From a virus (Duplodnaviria; Caudoviricetes), in the IMG/VR virus record IMGVR_UViG_3300033121_001167, positions 15,250-79,249 of that record: a stretch of 64,000 nucleotides of DNA, one strand, 5' to 3'. The translations under genes and the position numbers were made by a program. This document shows positions 2,500-64,000 of this stretch, piece by piece (the first letter of the stretch is position 1; each line of letters opens with the position of its first letter). Below the pieces are notes generated by a model that saw only the letters and a program-made list of their open reading frames with translations, made no database searches and was not told the DNA's origin.

Positions 2500-2993
2500 G
2501 TCGTTTTATACAAGCAAAAGCCACTAAGATCACCAACCAAGAATTTTACATCGCTGATGCCATAGCCAGAGACTGGATATTTTTTCCAAATCATTTTATA
2601 CAATTTATCTTTTTGTGGGTCTGTCTTTACACTACCATCTTTATGAACTGATATGATTGCAACACATTGTGGTTTCTTTTTTGCAATATATCGCTCAACT
2701 GCATCTTTGACAGTTTTATATAGAGCCAACGCCGAATTAAGTTCAAGATTGGTATATTTTGCGTCTTCCCCATTCACTGTGAAACTGACATTTACCAATT
2801 CTGTTATTTTGTCTTGTAAAAACGGGAGAAATTCAAATTCATTAATGTTAGTTTTTTCGTCAAATTCAACCACAATTTCAAGATCGTCCGCAGTTTTGAA
2901 TTTAGCAAAATGACCGCTCCAACGAATTGGATAAGATTTGACTGTGTTGAAATCTAAGATTTCCTTCAAGATTTCCATTAATGATATTTTCAT
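2496..2993 (-). CDS. hypothetical protein
   Basis: 165 aa ORF, ATGA-coupled; starts MKISLMEILKEI. Confidence 0.7.
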   Translation of the reverse strand: MKISLMEILKEILDFNTVKSYPIRWSGHFAKFKTADDLEIVVEFDEKTNINEFEFLPFLQDKITELVNVSFTVNGEDAKYTNLELNSALALYKTVKDAVERYIAKKKPQCVAIISVHKDGSVKTDPQKDKLYKMIWKKYPVSGYGISDVKFLVGDLSGFCLYKTT

Positions 2994-2999
2994 AATCTG

Positions 3000-3605
3000 T
3001 TATGTTAATTTACAAATCATTCCCTCTGCGTCTTTTCTCAAAATGCGCTCAGGACTTCCGCCAAAATTGTGACGCACATCATGCCCAATTGAACATACTT
3101 TTTCCAGTTGTCCAACATAAATTAGTTGTTGTACTGCTAAATAAACATCATCAAATAGTCCTACATCATCAAACACAAAATACACGTCCCCATCGGCGTG
3201 TTTTAAATTTTTTGCCCTACTAACATCCATCAGAATTTGATCGGTTGTGTGACCCGCATCTATCACAAACACTGATATTGGACTATGTGCGAAATTTGAA
3301 TCTACTGGAGTATCGTACAAATTCATCTCAATAAATTTGATATTACTCCGGTCAAAATTCAATTTTTGTGCAGCATCCATGTGTCCGGGTAAATTAATTG
3401 TGTAAACTTTGTTGAACAGATATGACAAAACCCGTGTTGTGCCACCTTTATGTGTTCCAAATTCTACGCAATTGAATTTTTGATGGTTGGGCAATGCTTT
3501 AAAAAAATTCCACAAATCCGTTTTAAACTTATTGGATGTAGTTGTAAGATTCGTGTGTTTGTCTTCACCAACTTCCAATAAAATTTCGTCAATTGTCTTA
3601 AACAT
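3000..3605 (-). CDS. class I SAM-dependent methyltransferase (Methyltransf_24-like)
   Basis: VEFGTHKGGT motif I; VIDAGHT; VFDD. Confidence 0.8.
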   Translation of the reverse strand: MFKTIDEILLEVGEDKHTNLTTTSNKFKTDLWNFFKALPNHQKFNCVEFGTHKGGTTRVLSYLFNKVYTINLPGHMDAAQKLNFDRSNIKFIEMNLYDTPVDSNFAHSPISVFVIDAGHTTDQILMDVSRAKNLKHADGDVYFVFDDVGLFDDVYLAVQQLIYVGQLEKVCSIGHDVRHNFGGSPERILRKDAEGMICKLT

Positions 3606-11586: not shown

Positions 11587-11710
11587 AATTAAATTTTTGT
11601 TTTAACATTCGTCATCCATCATACTTCGCTGTCGGTCGCCCACGACCTCTTTGCTTGTATGACTCATTTCATTTTTTTTTGCTCATAATGCTACGCAGAT
11701 AACCCCTGAC

Positions 11711-11840
11711 TCACTGGAGGGCGAGGCGGAAGCCAACATAGTAGGCACGGATCGTCGGCACGAAGTTGCCGAGATCAGCGGAGCGGCAGCGCCGAGCATC
11801 GATGCTCCAGCTGCCGCCGCGAAGCACGCGGAGCCCGCCC
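11711..11840 (-). other. candidate DGR variable region (VR)
   Basis: C-terminal RGGSWSIDARRCRSADLGNFVPTIRAYYVGFRL. Positions that are Asn (AAY) in typical template repeats carry NNC/NNT codons (AGC ATC GAT CGC GAT GGC AAC TTC ATC GCC TAC TAT). No TR seen in the window. Confidence 0.5.
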
Positions 11841-12385
11841 GAATCCGGTCCTGTTGGGTTGATCTGCGGCTGCGGCTCGGATGGGTAGTCTCCAGACCAA
11901 TCTTGGCACCATTCCCACACGTTGCCGCTCATGTCGTGAATACCGAGTTCGTTGGGCTTTTTTGTGCCTACCGAGTGGGTGCGTAAGTTGGAGTTTTTAT
12001 ACCGCCAAGCGACTTCGTCCAAGTCGTCGCTGCCAGCGTATTTATATCCGTTGGAATAAATGCCTCCACGAGCAGCGTATTCCCATTCCGCTTCCGTTGG
12101 CAAGCGGTACGCTTTGCCCGTTAGCATGTTGAGTTTTTGGATGAACTCCTGACAGTCGGTCCAACTGACATTTTCTACGGGCAAGTCATCACCCTTGAAA
12201 TGGCTGGGATTGTCACCCATGACCGCAGCCCACTGTGCTTGCGTCACTGGGCATTTTCCGATGTAGAAGTCGGAAAGTGTGACTTCGTGCTGGGTTTCGT
12301 CGTCGTAGCGCCCGACTTCGTTCTCTGGGCTTCCCATCATAAACGTACCGCCTTGGACAAAAATCATTTCTGGCTCAAAATTCAT
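11711..12385 (-). CDS. FGE-sulfatase / C-type-lectin-fold protein, DGR-target-like, GC-rich
   Basis: GGTFMMGS, EVTLSDFYIGKCPVT, PVENVSW, RLPTEAEWEYAARGG, GIHDMSGNVWEW, RVLRGGSW...GFRL. Start set at MNFEPE (12385), below the promoter. Sampled lines are 50-70% GC versus about 30% in flanks. Confidence 0.92.
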   Translation of the reverse strand: MNFEPEMIFVQGGTFMMGSPENEVGRYDDETQHEVTLSDFYIGKCPVTQAQWAAVMGDNPSHFKGDDLPVENVSWTDCQEFIQKLNMLTGKAYRLPTEAEWEYAARGGIYSNGYKYAGSDDLDEVAWRYKNSNLRTHSVGTKKPNELGIHDMSGNVWEWCQDWSGDYPSEPQPQINPTGPDSGGLRVLRGGSWSIDARRCRSADLGNFVPTIRAYYVGFRLALQ

Positions 12386-12416
12386 AATAGCATTGCTTGT
12401 TTTAAAAATTATAGTA

Positions 12417-12458
12417 CAAAGGTATGGTAAATTTTCAGACAATTCCAAATCATTAACA
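12417..12458 (-). promoter_or_regulatory. Bacteroidota-type promoter driving the FGE/CLec gene
   Basis: TGTTAATGATTTG (-33 at 12446-12449), 21 nt spacer, TACCTTTG (12417-12424). A 16-mer is identical to the ssb promoter (12443-12458 = 55185-55200). Confidence 0.75.
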
Positions 12459-12800
12459 AATAGTTAACGTATCACTGGTCGTTGTTATGTGTGTCATTGT
12501 ACCACCTACAAACAAATTGAAATCATAGATTGGTTCACTACAAACGATCTCTTCAGTATTTAGTATTGTAATTTGTTCAGTATCGCTTCCAAAATCACAA
12601 CTTGGACATTTTCCCTTTGACGATATGTCCCATCTATGCCCATGTGAGCAAGAATAACTGGTCGTAGTTGTATTCATATCGTGGTGGTGGTATTTTCCGG
12701 CAGTATCATAATAAGGAGCACAATACATTGCAGTACATGTACTCATGCCCGGATAAACATTGGATTCGAGATTCTTTTCTTGGCAGACAGGACACTTCAT
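12453..12800 (-). CDS. Cys-rich (Zn-ribbon) hypothetical protein
   Basis: CPVC ... CSHGH ... CPSC; start MKCPVC, ATGA-coupled. Confidence 0.65.
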   Translation of the reverse strand: MKCPVCQEKNLESNVYPGMSTCTAMYCAPYYDTAGKYHHHDMNTTTTSYSCSHGHRWDISSKGKCPSCDFGSDTEQITILNTEEIVCSEPIYDFNLFVGGTMTHITTTSDTLTIC

Positions 12801-13021
12801 AAATAAGTTGGAGAACATTTGGGGCAAGAACACGAAATATTGTGAATACATATACCAAGCACTGAACGACCAGTACCACGGCATTGTGGGCAAGCGTCAT
12901 GCAAACATGGGTAAATTTGAGTTATAATTTTTTGCTGCTCATATTCTTTTTGAGTGAATGTTAGTGTAGTTGAGTAACTACATAATTCGGGGGTATATTT
13001 AAAATCATTTGAACTGGTCAT
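12797..13021 (-). CDS. small Cys-rich (Zn-finger) protein
   Basis: CLHDACPQCRGTG ... CIHNISCSCPKC. Confidence 0.65.
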   Translation of the reverse strand: MTSSNDFKYTPELCSYSTTLTFTQKEYEQQKIITQIYPCLHDACPQCRGTGRSVLGICIHNISCSCPKCSPTYL

Positions 13022-27866: not shown

Positions 27867-28912
27867 AGTTCTTTCAATAAATTTACGAATGGTTTGTTTG
27901 AATAATATTTAGTCGTAATCTGTTCAGTATCTGATTTCATTTTTTCGGCAATTTCGTCATATCTTCCAACCCGGTCTATAAACAAATCTGCCAGTTGTGC
28001 GCGACTTCGCATCAAATACAAATATTTATTGTGTCGTGCTTTAGTAAGCAGACTCGGATATTGATATTCCTTCGGGAAAACTTGGTAATACATTAGCCGA
28101 CTTGGTACCATTGGAACAACGCCATTGCACATACCTTCCCACAACAATACTGGATTAGTCTCTGCAACTTGCGAACAAAACATAAGTTTTGATTGCTGTA
28201 ATAAATTCCGATAAGCCGTCCGAGAACTGTGGGTATCATACGCATAAATAAAATTCAAATTAGTCAATTCTCCCTCAAGACCACGAAATGCGTTGACTTG
28301 CATATCGTTAGTTACTTTATATGGAAAAACTATCAAATTTTTTCTCTCCATGTCAAGTTTCTTGACTCTGGATATATATTCAAAAGGATAACCAGTCACT
28401 CTGATTGAATTTGAATTTGCAACTCGCCCATATTTCCCCTCAAACAAATCAATCTCATTTTCAGATAAAAAGCAATTGTAGTCATACGCATTAAAAAGTG
28501 CGTATTCAAATTGACGACCAAACGTTTTACTTGCACCCTTAAACCGTTGCCACATTGGACTAAATTGGTTGTATAGTGAATCTCCCCATACACCAATCAT
28601 CGTTATATTCAGTTTATATTCGTCCCGAAAATAACATAACGGGACGGCAATATAATTCCACGCATTTGTGAAAATAAATACATCGCCGTCCCGTATCTTT
28701 CCAGTTTCTACCATGTTCATCAACACTTTCAATTGTATTGATTTATAGTAGGTGTCCGCAAAAAGAGCCGATTCGTGTGAAATTGTGGTGCCATCTACAA
28801 TTTTTATATCATATTTAGCGAAATCACCATTCCACCAACATTCTCTCCAATAATTTTCTATCGGAGCGCCCAATTCCGTGACAATGAAAAGCGTTTTACG
28901 CCGCATCCCCAA
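27863..28912 (-). CDS. divergent GT-B glycosyltransferase-like protein (possible DNA modification)
   Basis: YKSIQL...GDVFIFTNAWN...IGVW...AYDYNCF resembles phage GTs I recall near base-modification genes; sits inside the replication operon. Confidence 0.5.
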   Translation of the reverse strand: MGMRRKTLFIVTELGAPIENYWRECWWNGDFAKYDIKIVDGTTISHESALFADTYYKSIQLKVLMNMVETGKIRDGDVFIFTNAWNYIAVPLCYFRDEYKLNITMIGVWGDSLYNQFSPMWQRFKGASKTFGRQFEYALFNAYDYNCFLSENEIDLFEGKYGRVANSNSIRVTGYPFEYISRVKKLDMERKNLIVFPYKVTNDMQVNAFRGLEGELTNLNFIYAYDTHSSRTAYRNLLQQSKLMFCSQVAETNPVLLWEGMCNGVVPMVPSRLMYYQVFPKEYQYPSLLTKARHNKYLYLMRSRAQLADLFIDRVGRYDEIAEKMKSDTEQITTKYYSNKPFVNLLKEL

Positions 28913-54235: not shown

Positions 54236-55096
54236 TTAAAACGGCATATCATCGTCATCTGGTTTTGCCGGGCTATCCATATCATTGAACAGCGTATCAA
54301 AATCGTCAACGATTTCATTTATAGTTGATGTGGATGTAGAAGTAGGCACCGCTGTTGCTACTTCTTTCTTTGGCTCAGGAGTCTTCACATTCAAGTATTT
54401 TTCCACAGCCGCAAGTAATTCATCATAACTTGGTTCTGTAAACAAAGTTTTCAATTCGGGCATCGCGTTGATTTTTTCAAGTACCGCTTTATCTTCAGTT
54501 GCAACCGTAGATTTTCGTGCTGGGATGATTTTTGTGCTCGGATAATCCGTACCATTCACTTCAGGTGGTGAATAAACCACTTTCAAATCAGTGCCAGTTT
54601 TCAAATCTGACAAATCGCCCCACTCTTCATCGGCAAAATATTCAAGCAGCGATTCGTAGATTTTTTTCGTAAATCCCCAATATTTTGGGCCTTCATGTTC
54701 CTTTCCGCGAATCAAAACCGCGACATAGTAACGGTCGGCTGGCTCAAGTTTACGACGAAAATTAGCCAATGCCATCCACTCGTCCTTCGGAATTTTAGTA
54801 CCTTCTGGGATAATTGCATTATACGCTTCAACTGCCGGATCCCTGCGATCAAACTGACAAGGGGCAAGCCAAGTTTTACCAAAATTGTAATAAAATTTCA
54901 GTTCACTGAATGGCATTTCTGAATTGTAAATGTTTGGTAGAATACGGATGTTGTATTCTCCTGCTGCCGCTTGCCCTGTGGAGGTTTTTGTAGCAGTTGG
55001 TTTCCAAAATAAATCTTGGTTTCCACCAGTTTGTGGAGTTTTTGTTTGCGTTTCCTTCAACGCAGCCAGTTTGGCTCGGATTTGTTCTACATTCAT
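54236..55096 (-). CDS. single-stranded DNA-binding protein (T4 gp32-like)
   Basis: FWKP...IRILP, acidic C-terminal tail DDDDMPF; context. Confidence 0.85.
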   Translation of the reverse strand: MNVEQIRAKLAALKETQTKTPQTGGNQDLFWKPTATKTSTGQAAAGEYNIRILPNIYNSEMPFSELKFYYNFGKTWLAPCQFDRRDPAVEAYNAIIPEGTKIPKDEWMALANFRRKLEPADRYYVAVLIRGKEHEGPKYWGFTKKIYESLLEYFADEEWGDLSDLKTGTDLKVVYSPPEVNGTDYPSTKIIPARKSTVATEDKAVLEKINAMPELKTLFTEPSYDELLAAVEKYLNVKTPEPKKEVATAVPTSTSTSTINEIVDDFDTLFNDMDSPAKPDDDDMPF

Positions 55097-55159: not shown

Positions 55160-55200
55160 CAATAATACAGAATATTTTTGAGATTTCCAAATCATTAACA
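55160..55200 (-). promoter_or_regulatory. Bacteroidota-type promoter upstream of ssb
   Basis: TGTTAATGATTTG, 20 nt spacer, TATTATTG (55160-55167). Confidence 0.7.
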
Positions 55201-62767: not shown

Positions 62768-64000
62768 CTAATTGTTATTTTGTTTTCTAATTATATCCCC
62801 AACCCTTTGCCCATCCATATGGACTACGAGTTGCTGTTTTAATTGCAATTCCATAAGTTGATTCAGTTTCATAAGCAGCATTTCCACTTTTGATAAATCC
62901 CCAATCTCGTCATTGCTATAATTATCAGATGACTTTTGCTTTTCAAATTGACCCTGTTGAATATTATTTTGATTGAATTTTGGATATTCAATTTTTACAT
63001 CCTGCGCAACTGATTCCCGTTTCGGTTCCTTAACTTGAACGTCCTGTGCGACGGATTGTTTACTCGGAGCAAAAGGTTTAACAAGTGGGGTTTGAATTGG
63101 GGAAATTTTAACTTGCGTATTATCCCGCTCAACTTTTGGTTGAATTTCGGTGAGCGGTTCAATTTGGCGAGTAATTTTAGCATCAACTCCAATCTCATCA
63201 AAGTTTTTAAGTTTTTCAATATTTGTAAGATCAACATTTTCAAGAACTTTTGTCAAATCTATCAAATTTGTAACTAAACTTCCAATGGAATTCGCCACAA
63301 TATACAACGGATTTGCCAAATTTCCAACTATTTGCAAATCTTTAACAAATCCACCACTGAATAACGACTGAATTCCGCTCATTGCGTTGAGTGTGAACAT
63401 TGCACCACTGATTGAAATTAAACCAGCCGATAATCCAAAAAGTGAACTAACTGAAACTTTAGTCAATTCCATCAACGAACTGCCCAAATCAATTAGGGGT
63501 GATGGATTTAGTGACTTCATACTGGAATTTAATGTGATTAGGGAGCCAGAAAATAATATAAGAGAAACACTTGCTGCACCAATTGCCATCGCTCCGGCTA
63601 AAATTACTGGAGAAATCATCCCAAATATACCAACAGTTGCGCCAAAAGCAACAAGTGCAACACCCGCTTTTGCCAATCCTTCCCATCCAATGTTGTTAAA
63701 TTTTTCCAACGCAAACGCAAGTGGTATAAGTGATGCACCAATTGCTGCAATGGCAACCGAACCAAGTAATAACGCTGGTGAAATTCCAGACATAACACTT
63801 CCTATAACACCAAGACCAATTAGTGCAACACCCGCTTTTGCCAATCCTTCCCATCCAATGTTGTTAAATTTTTCCAACGCAAACGCAAGTGGTATAAGTG
63901 ATGCACCAATTGCTGCAATGGCAACCGAACCAAGTAATAACGCTGGTGAAATTCCAGACATAACACTTCCTATAACACCAAGACCAATTAGTGCAACACC
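62768..64000 (-). CDS. tape measure protein, 3' part (5' end outside window)
   Basis: Ala/Gly/Leu-rich helical repeats with periodic W; upstream of tube/tailX/hub genes; frame open to the edge. Confidence 0.8.
   Translation of the reverse strand, partial: GVALIGLGVIGSVMSGISPALLLGSVAIAAIGASLIPLAFALEKFNNIGWEGLAKAGVALIGLGVIGSVMSGISPALLLGSVAIAAIGASLIPLAFALEKFNNIGWEGLAKAGVALVAFGATVGIFGMISPVILAGAMAIGAASVSLILFSGSLITLNSSMKSLNPSPLIDLGSSLMELTKVSVSSLFGLSAGLISISGAMFTLNAMSGIQSLFSGGFVKDLQIVGNLANPLYIVANSIGSLVTNLIDLTKVLENVDLTNIEKLKNFDEIGVDAKITRQIEPLTEIQPKVERDNTQVKISPIQTPLVKPFAPSKQSVAQDVQVKEPKRESVAQDVKIEYPKFNQNNIQQGQFEKQKSSDNYSNDEIGDLSKVEMLLMKLNQLMELQLKQQLVVHMDGQRVGDIIRKQNNN
63654..64000 (-). repeat. perfect 168-bp (56-aa) tandem repeat in the TMP
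   Basis: Units start at 63654, 63822 and 63990; the first two are nucleotide-identical. Confidence 0.92.

Follow-up and report, generated by a model that had tools for sequence, protein, structure and literature searches.

How a phage gene can bear the marks of a DGR when the phage carries no DGR machinery is the question raised by gene A, a GC-rich gene on the minus strand of the window (the whole stretch of 64,000 nucleotides that was analyzed). To our knowledge, phage DGRs have been described with their machinery in the same phage, and DGR surveys begin from the reverse transcriptase (RT); targets on replicons that lack an RT are therefore invisible to such surveys. No description of a target-only phage genome was found, either in full-text literature searches, which were aimed elsewhere, or in a term search of the survey by Roux et al., which came back empty.

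In this study, gene A was followed from the window into the remainder of its genome, into related phages and into cellular genomes. What emerges is an apparently complete phage genome with multiple genes that appear to have been written by a DGR and with no machinery for doing so, the scaffold defined by the template being found also in a bacterial conflict-system sensor. The positions of the features at the locus are collected in Table 1.

Gene A, its fold and its promoter

The minus-strand open reading frame of gene A occupies 11711..12448 in full, and the start codon adopted here is the ATG that is shared with the paralogs. Residues 4-222 match the Pfam FGE-sulfatase family (PF03781; E = 4e-53), and neither a signal peptide nor an additional domain is evident in the sequence. 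The closest solved relative by sequence is TvpA, a DGR variable protein of Treponema denticola (PDB entry 2Y3C; E = 2.3e-40), whereas true FGEs score about 1e-23. The preliminary description had taken the locus for an FGE/C-type-lectin gene, and the real reading frame, the Pfam match and the rank of TvpA uphold this assignment. With SUMF1/FGE, gene A has the PF03781 family and the overall fold in common. A single Cys is present in the stretch that is relevant to FGE catalysis, within a CRSA motif, and the catalytic Cys pair of human FGE presumably falls on non-Cys residues of gene A. Since this pair appears to be missing and true FGEs score far below TvpA, the product of gene A is probably, judged by its sequence, a binding module and not a formylglycine-generating enzyme. 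The variable segment forms the C-terminus of the protein, comprising the last ~34 codons ahead of a conserved GFRLA.

The gene had been described as GC-rich within a genome of about 30% GC. The first part stands, with 52% GC in the gene body and 69% in the final 138 nt, but the phage background is ∼36%. The GC content at third codon positions (GC3) rises from 0.61 in the body to 0.76 in the variable region (VR), compared with 0.31 in polB, the DNA polymerase gene of the phage.

Upstream of the gene, a Bacteroidota-type promoter of the form TTTG-N21-TACCTTTG was found by pattern matching at 12417-12449, where it is overlapped by the 16-mer TTCCAAATCATTAACA. This 16-mer occurs exactly twice, at 12443-12458 and at 55185-55200, and none of 100 shuffles reached the observed count. 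The second occurrence lies upstream of a gene for a gp32-like SSB, so that gene A and ssb do share the 16-mer in their upstream regions, as had been noted. The SSB itself (window 54236-55096) has 286 residues and an acidic DDDDMPF tail, and the upstream 16-mer that it has in common with cassette A reads TGTTAATGATTTGGAA on the coding strand. The leader TACCTTTGTACTATAATTTTTAAAAC is identical in cassette copies A, B and C, which are introduced below, and in A and B the identical leader measures ~33 nt; it was considered as a general phage promoter and rejected, as it occurs once in the window.

Table 1. Features at the gene A locus (positions in the window).
Feature	Position	Strand	Description
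Gene A	11711..12385	-	Stand-alone FGE-sulfatase/C-type-lectin-fold protein, 224 aa; start ATG at 12385 conserved among paralogs
Promoter region	12417..12458	-	Bacteroidota-type -33 TTTG and -7 TACCTTTG, plus upstream 16-mer
Variable region (VR)	11735..11835	-	~34 inferred template adenines and ~12 AAY-type codons, from a nine-sequence alignment
GC-rich 15-mer GGCTTCCGCCTCGCC	11720..11734	-	3' edge of the VR; identical in 8/9 class-1 copies
IMH-like 24-mer CTCCAGTGAGTCAGGGGTTATCTG	11696..11719	-	Contains the stop codon (11711-11713); adenines invariant
Conserved non-coding tail	11614..11695	-	95% identical between A and B, gene bodies ~82%
Stem-loop in the tail (predicted)	11619-11662	-	Outer stem TCATAC/GTATGA; apical hairpin GGTCG-TGGG-CGACC at 11634-11647

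Paralogous cassettes on a ~206-kb phage map

At least four copies of the cassette (A, B, C and A2) are present in a phage map of ~206 kb. Copy B (G000:C1:2479-3135) was found on searching the whole 79-kb record from which the window is taken (G000); it lies 24.5 kb from gene A and just outside the window, and hence was not seen in the preliminary description. It is this copy that makes the case for a DGR target. The mismatches between A and B are concentrated in the final ~100 coding bases, and the identities given in Table 1 hold for the coding bodies and for the ~100-nt non-coding 3' tail. Copy C is truncated by the start of the G000 contig. A 20-mer from the 3' tail led to a 127-kb IMG/VR contig (3300033121_000954; G004), which carries two more copies. 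In A, B and A2 the cassette consists of the promoter, a gene for an FGE-type C-type-lectin protein of ~220 residues and the conserved 3' tail; the tail of C differs. Related phages have a fifth, extra tandem FGE copy.

The two contigs are read, on the basis of their sequences, as one circular map of ~206 kb with four cassettes. The last 77 nt of G000 (window 63924-64000) are exactly the first 77 nt of G004, the junction region including L038:1-150, and this junction falls inside the tandem repeats of a giant minus-strand gene of >2000 aa. The second junction closes via copy C: nucleotides 1-313 of G000 equal 2905-3217, copy B contains the 77 nt with which G004 ends, and an independent ENA contig (L033) bridges the gap. 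The modules are complementary, with replication and glycan genes on G000 and the tail sheath, portal and head protease on G004. Furthermore, the CheckV completeness values of 41% and 69% sum to 110% of the expected length, or about one genome. The alternative that G004 is a separate relative was rejected: apart from the cassette it has no nucleotide similarity to G000 and almost no proteins in common with it, and the 77-nt overlap marks it as the other half of one genome.

The 313-nt segment at G000:C1:1-313 and its exact duplicate span the promoter plus 77 codons in the FGE copies C and B, and they bracket amidase and lysozyme-like genes. Such an exact duplication signals recent gene conversion, and it explains the break in the G000 contig. 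Similarly, the final 200 nt of G004 are found again at 28198. Locus A is in addition a site of divergence between strains: L029:9578-10781 corresponds to window 11592-12813, where the cassette is 78% identical and the flanks are 92-95% identical, and the L029 cassette has another VR scaffold (class 2) and another C-terminal tail (ALAPQSVG). A divergent cassette between similar flanks indicates that locus A is a hotspot of cassette exchange.

The preliminary description had noted no RT, Avd or template repeat (TR) in 64 kb and had proposed a search for an RT of the DGR clade. This absence can now be extended to ~206 kb. No RVT_1 domain was found in G000 (E ≤ 10) or G004 (E ≤ 1), and no Avd (PF05635) in either contig; the map contains nothing that matches a DGR RT protein, no YxDD reading frame with a DGR motif, no template repeat and no further VR-like DNA. 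It is therefore highly probable that the phage has no DGR machinery, in which case the template is, or was, located elsewhere.

The variable region and its 3' flank

Nine class-1 copies were aligned, namely A, its strain variant L050, B, A2, C, L033b, L027, L051 and the bacterial copy L026. Across a 121-nt zone 80 columns are invariant, none of which is A (C 36, G 30, T 14), and 34 of the 41 variable columns have A in at least one copy; the remaining seven are mostly third-position C/T changes. In the 80 nt directly upstream of this zone, by comparison, 15 of 68 invariant columns are A (22%). In an alignment of seven copies, 36 of 40 variable columns fall at codon positions 1-2, giving NNC/NNT codons, and the pattern which had been pointed out at the C-terminus of gene A is far beyond chance. 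If A is placed at all variable columns, a template with ~12 AAY codons results, the translation of which would be approximately ...RGGSW-NN-DAQ-N-CRSA-N-x-NNN-EPT-N..NN-I-GFR. The CTC codon at the conserved Arg, which the preliminary description had already set apart from adenine mutagenesis, is a G-to-T change limited to copy A and the near-identical strain L050, and is an ordinary substitution.

The variation is confined to this segment. Copies A2, C, L033b, L027 and L051 have no differences in the 86 nt preceding the VR and 4-30 differences within 106 nt, with 19-30 pairwise VR differences in nine of the ten pairs; likewise, four VR alleles are found on nearly identical bodies in the P0003 cluster (90% protein identity). 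This pattern means that the VR alone has been replaced, which is hard to achieve by recombination with a bacterial gene that is 64% identical (see below) and is exactly what is expected of DGR retrohoming. The writing would then have taken place on gene bodies that were resident in the phage or of the phage type. Even with no TR at hand, the way in which paralogs and strains differ leaves the DGR origin of the variation secure, and the footprint of adenine mutagenesis over nine copies, together with TvpA as the best solved relative, agrees with the earlier reading of gene A as a DGR target; we hold a DGR origin of the VR with strong confidence.

The boundary of the variation is sharp at the 15-mer and the 24-mer. 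The one change in the 15-mer, in L027, is at an inferred A column, and the 24-mer, the adenines of which are retained, is identical in A, B, A2, L033b, L051 and the Saprospiraceae gene described below. By analogy with the Bordetella phage BPP-1 (PMC3240598), the 15-mer and the 24-mer would represent the GC-rich element and the IMH of a DGR target site.

The predicted fold of the tail beyond the 24-mer is the same in A, B and L029, while A2 and L033a pair through T-G wobble. Its apical hairpin has a 5-bp stem and a TGGG loop, and is located about 50-70 nt beyond the region of homology/IMH-like element. The published hairpin consensus, which is for phage DGRs only, has a GC-rich stem of 7-10 bp and a 4-nt GRNA loop at 4-34 bp from the VR (PMC3240598). 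The tail hairpin does not fit this consensus and its role is uncertain. Copy C and L027 are without the tail, yet their VRs differ. A search of the 3' tail against Rfam gave nothing near threshold, and its folding energy is no better than that of shuffled sequences.

Origin and possible rewriting of the variable regions

A metagenome scan returned a bacterial copy of the VR on a short contig of ~55% GC (L026), and the full gene (P0162) is present on a 7.8-kb contig (L046). P0162 has 903 residues, EAD11 forming its N-terminal and FGE its C-terminal domain, and a reading of its sequence suggests a hydrophobic segment and putative Asp-rich repeats. The bodies of this gene and gene A are 64% identical, whereas 35 of 36 third codon positions agree in the VR. 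In the 3' flank the 15-mer and 24-mer are identical at 39/39 nt, and the next 100 nt are 60% identical. The neighboring genes encode YifB/ComM, PorP/SprF and a GldK-like protein, and they have 92% identity to proteins of Saprospiraceae MAGs, which places L046 in the Saprospiraceae. The proposal that gene A was captured from a cell is thus supported both by its cell-like codon composition and by a Saprospiraceae gene that agrees with it in the VR scaffold and in all 39 nt of the 3' flank. Neither an RT nor a TR is present on the 7.8-kb contig. It does carry an Avd-family (PF05635) gene, at L046:2207-2593, which is located 1.1 kb upstream of the EAD11-FGE target.

The template was sought with degenerate VR/TR patterns. 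Scans of IMG/VR, metagenome contigs and species genomes returned only further VRs. Neither the phage nor IMG/VR (including with the class-2 scaffold), metagenome contigs, species genomes or GenBank phages yielded a template repeat, these being incomplete collections, as L046 itself was missed by the metagenome scan. The preliminary description had named the absence of any TR-like copy as an outcome that would count against it, and this is what has so far been found in the collections scanned. The sole other match, in Akkermansia, lies inside a giant multi-FGE protein and was rejected as chance. An unrelated 136-kb phage (G001), in which an FGE homolog and a DGR-type RT lie 56 kb apart, was likewise set aside because no TR matched, and it has no bearing on the present phage; a weak 26-nt match there is AT-rich and was attributed to chance. 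The FGE gene of this phage is itself GC-rich, again with no matching TR. G001 has few long reading frames under code 11 and its DGR-type RT (L006:1114-2100, with an IGNYLSQ motif) is interrupted by one TAG, and on this reading of its sequence TAG may be reassigned.

The evidence on whether the VR is still being rewritten is divided. Over 5.9 kb, a 9.9-kb JGI contig (L050) differs from the window at three bases, all of which are in the VR, and this restriction to the VR argues for ongoing rewriting, as does the better conservation of the 3' elements than of the coding sequence. The changes in L050 are, however, ATC>TAC in an AAY-type codon and a synonymous C>T change (GGC>GGT); a single codon and a synonymous change are not the re-randomization expected of full retrohoming, which argues against it. 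In addition, the exact protein P0006 is found on 14 contigs from several samples, the VR of copy C is identical in three assemblies (G004, L033 and L051), and a fragment of A2-type VR (30 bases of a loose end) is present in the sequencing run that contains the window. These recurring alleles give the appearance of stable VRs, and the lack of a template in every collection scanned points in the same direction. Logan contigs, which are assembled such that rare variants are dropped, contain paralog VRs and breaks at repeats, with a piece of the copy A VR at the depth of its flanks. Overall, continued writing of the VR is plausible, with the odds leaning slightly against it.

Four explanations for these VRs were weighed. 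That no DGR was involved, and that the NNC pattern arose from ordinary diversifying selection acting on a binding pocket together with a GC-rich codon bias, would accord with the preference of high GC3 for NNC codons and with the FGE C-terminus being a known ligand-contact region. Selection would nevertheless not strip invariant A from 80 columns, synonymous sites included, with 22% A just upstream, nor would it keep 35/36 third positions between phage and bacterial genes with bodies that are 64% alike, and this explanation is scarcely credible. A DGR of the phage itself, hidden in sequence missing from both contigs (within FGE repeats that were collapsed, or within the gene of tandem repeats at the junctions), is improbable. 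Both junctions do lie in repeats, leaving copy number and extra paths ambiguous, and relatives have an additional tandem FGE copy; against this, the contigs already amount to 110% of the length expected by CheckV, their replication and structural modules complement each other, no unique sequence is needed to close either junction, and IMG/VR, which includes contigs of this assembly, has no TR that matches the scaffold.

The main rival is that the VRs are frozen relics, written by a DGR of an ancestral phage that has since been lost, or before or during capture, and now forming a fixed family that is shuffled by recombination and gene conversion. The ~206 kb without RT, Avd or TR, the identical VR alleles that recur across samples and contigs, the ongoing gene conversion seen in the duplicated ends of G000 and G004 and the cassette swapping at locus A in L029 would all follow from it. 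It is less easily reconciled with the 3' tail and IMH, which are 95-100% identical while the bodies have drifted to 82-89%, suggesting that target-site elements are still selected, with the location of all three G000-L050 differences inside the VR, or with a GC3 near cellular values despite the phage GC3 of 0.31. We consider relics possible though rather unlikely. The best explanation is that the cassettes are orphan DGR targets supplied by a cellular DGR, to which we assign a probability of roughly 0.5; a cellular writer is what we infer from the material as a whole.

With a cellular DGR as the supplier, the following mechanism may be proposed. The carrier would be a T4-like myophage of Bacteroidota, of ~206 kb, with paralogous cassettes. 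For the final ~100 nt of each gene, an AAC-rich template repeat would have been reverse-transcribed in an error-prone manner, and the cDNA would replace that segment only, with the GC-rich 15-mer and the IMH-like 24-mer as anchors. The most likely writer would be a multi-target DGR of a Saprospiraceae-type host, the EAD11-FGE membrane sensor of which has the same scaffold and IMH, and any phage copy that enters a cell in which this DGR is expressed would itself be a legitimate target in trans. From a host-type promoter, the gene would express a soluble module that binds ligand in a hypervariable pocket. It may tentatively be suggested that a jumbo phage of the virulent type keeps four to five retrohoming-competent cassettes that the host DGR rewrites during infection and, given that the same VR scaffold is found on the EAD11 membrane sensor of the host, that the soluble copies may be decoys or competitors of host antigen sensors.

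Several known systems resemble parts of this arrangement. In the DGR of Treponema denticola (PDB entry 2Y3C; PMC4891356; PMC5758913), the VR of TvpA is likewise placed at the extreme C-terminus of an FGE-type C-type-lectin fold, and one template there serves several targets, some of which are distant from the RT (PMC4891356; PMC5758913); however, the Treponema RT and TR share a genome with all of the targets, whereas the target-bearing phage described here has neither. The BPP-1 DGR (Mtd; PMC3240598) is phage-borne, and at the end of its VR a GC-rich element precedes an IMH with unmutagenized adenines, with an inverted repeat downstream, the 15-mer being the analogue of its (GC)14 element (PMC3240598). 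In contrast to the present phage, which has no machinery and a bare-domain protein, BPP-1 has avd-TR-brt beside a target that is a tail-fiber tip, and the hairpin here is shorter and more distant with another loop. Clade-5 cellular DGRs of multicellular bacteria, such as Thiohalocapsa PB-PSB1, diversify remote targets in trans within one chromosome (PMC10907252). They have multiple FGE/C-type-lectin targets, some of which lack a local RT or TR and match a distant TR at non-adenine sites, and their targets are fused to EAD/STAND conflict-system domains (PMC10907252), comparable to the EAD11-FGE architecture of P0162. Their action in trans is within a chromosome (PMC10907252), whereas the orphan targets here are on a phage genome of the virulent type, and no cognate TR was found for them in the collections scanned. 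RT-remote targets and trans action are thus documented within single genomes (PMC5758913; PMC10907252), and Wu et al. did not expect remote targets for phage-associated DGRs (PMC5758913).

DGR-diversified proteins with EAD and FGE domains have been proposed to act as an 'antigen sensor' (PMC10907252). If rewriting in trans is true, the phage would be a virus that uses the targeted-mutagenesis system of its host, and it would provide a direct handle on the proposed sensor role of DGR-diversified C-type-lectin proteins (PMC10907252). Even if the VRs are frozen, the copies document traffic of a DGR target cassette between Saprospiraceae and their phages.

Among the closest homologs are also cellular TIR_2-FGE fusions (P0023, P0016 and P0092). 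Two of these, P0016 and P0092, are from Saprospiraceae MAGs, and P0023 has the C-terminal GFRLASQ tail seen in the phage copies. Runs with a small share of the sequence loosely suggest river, wastewater and digester habitats.
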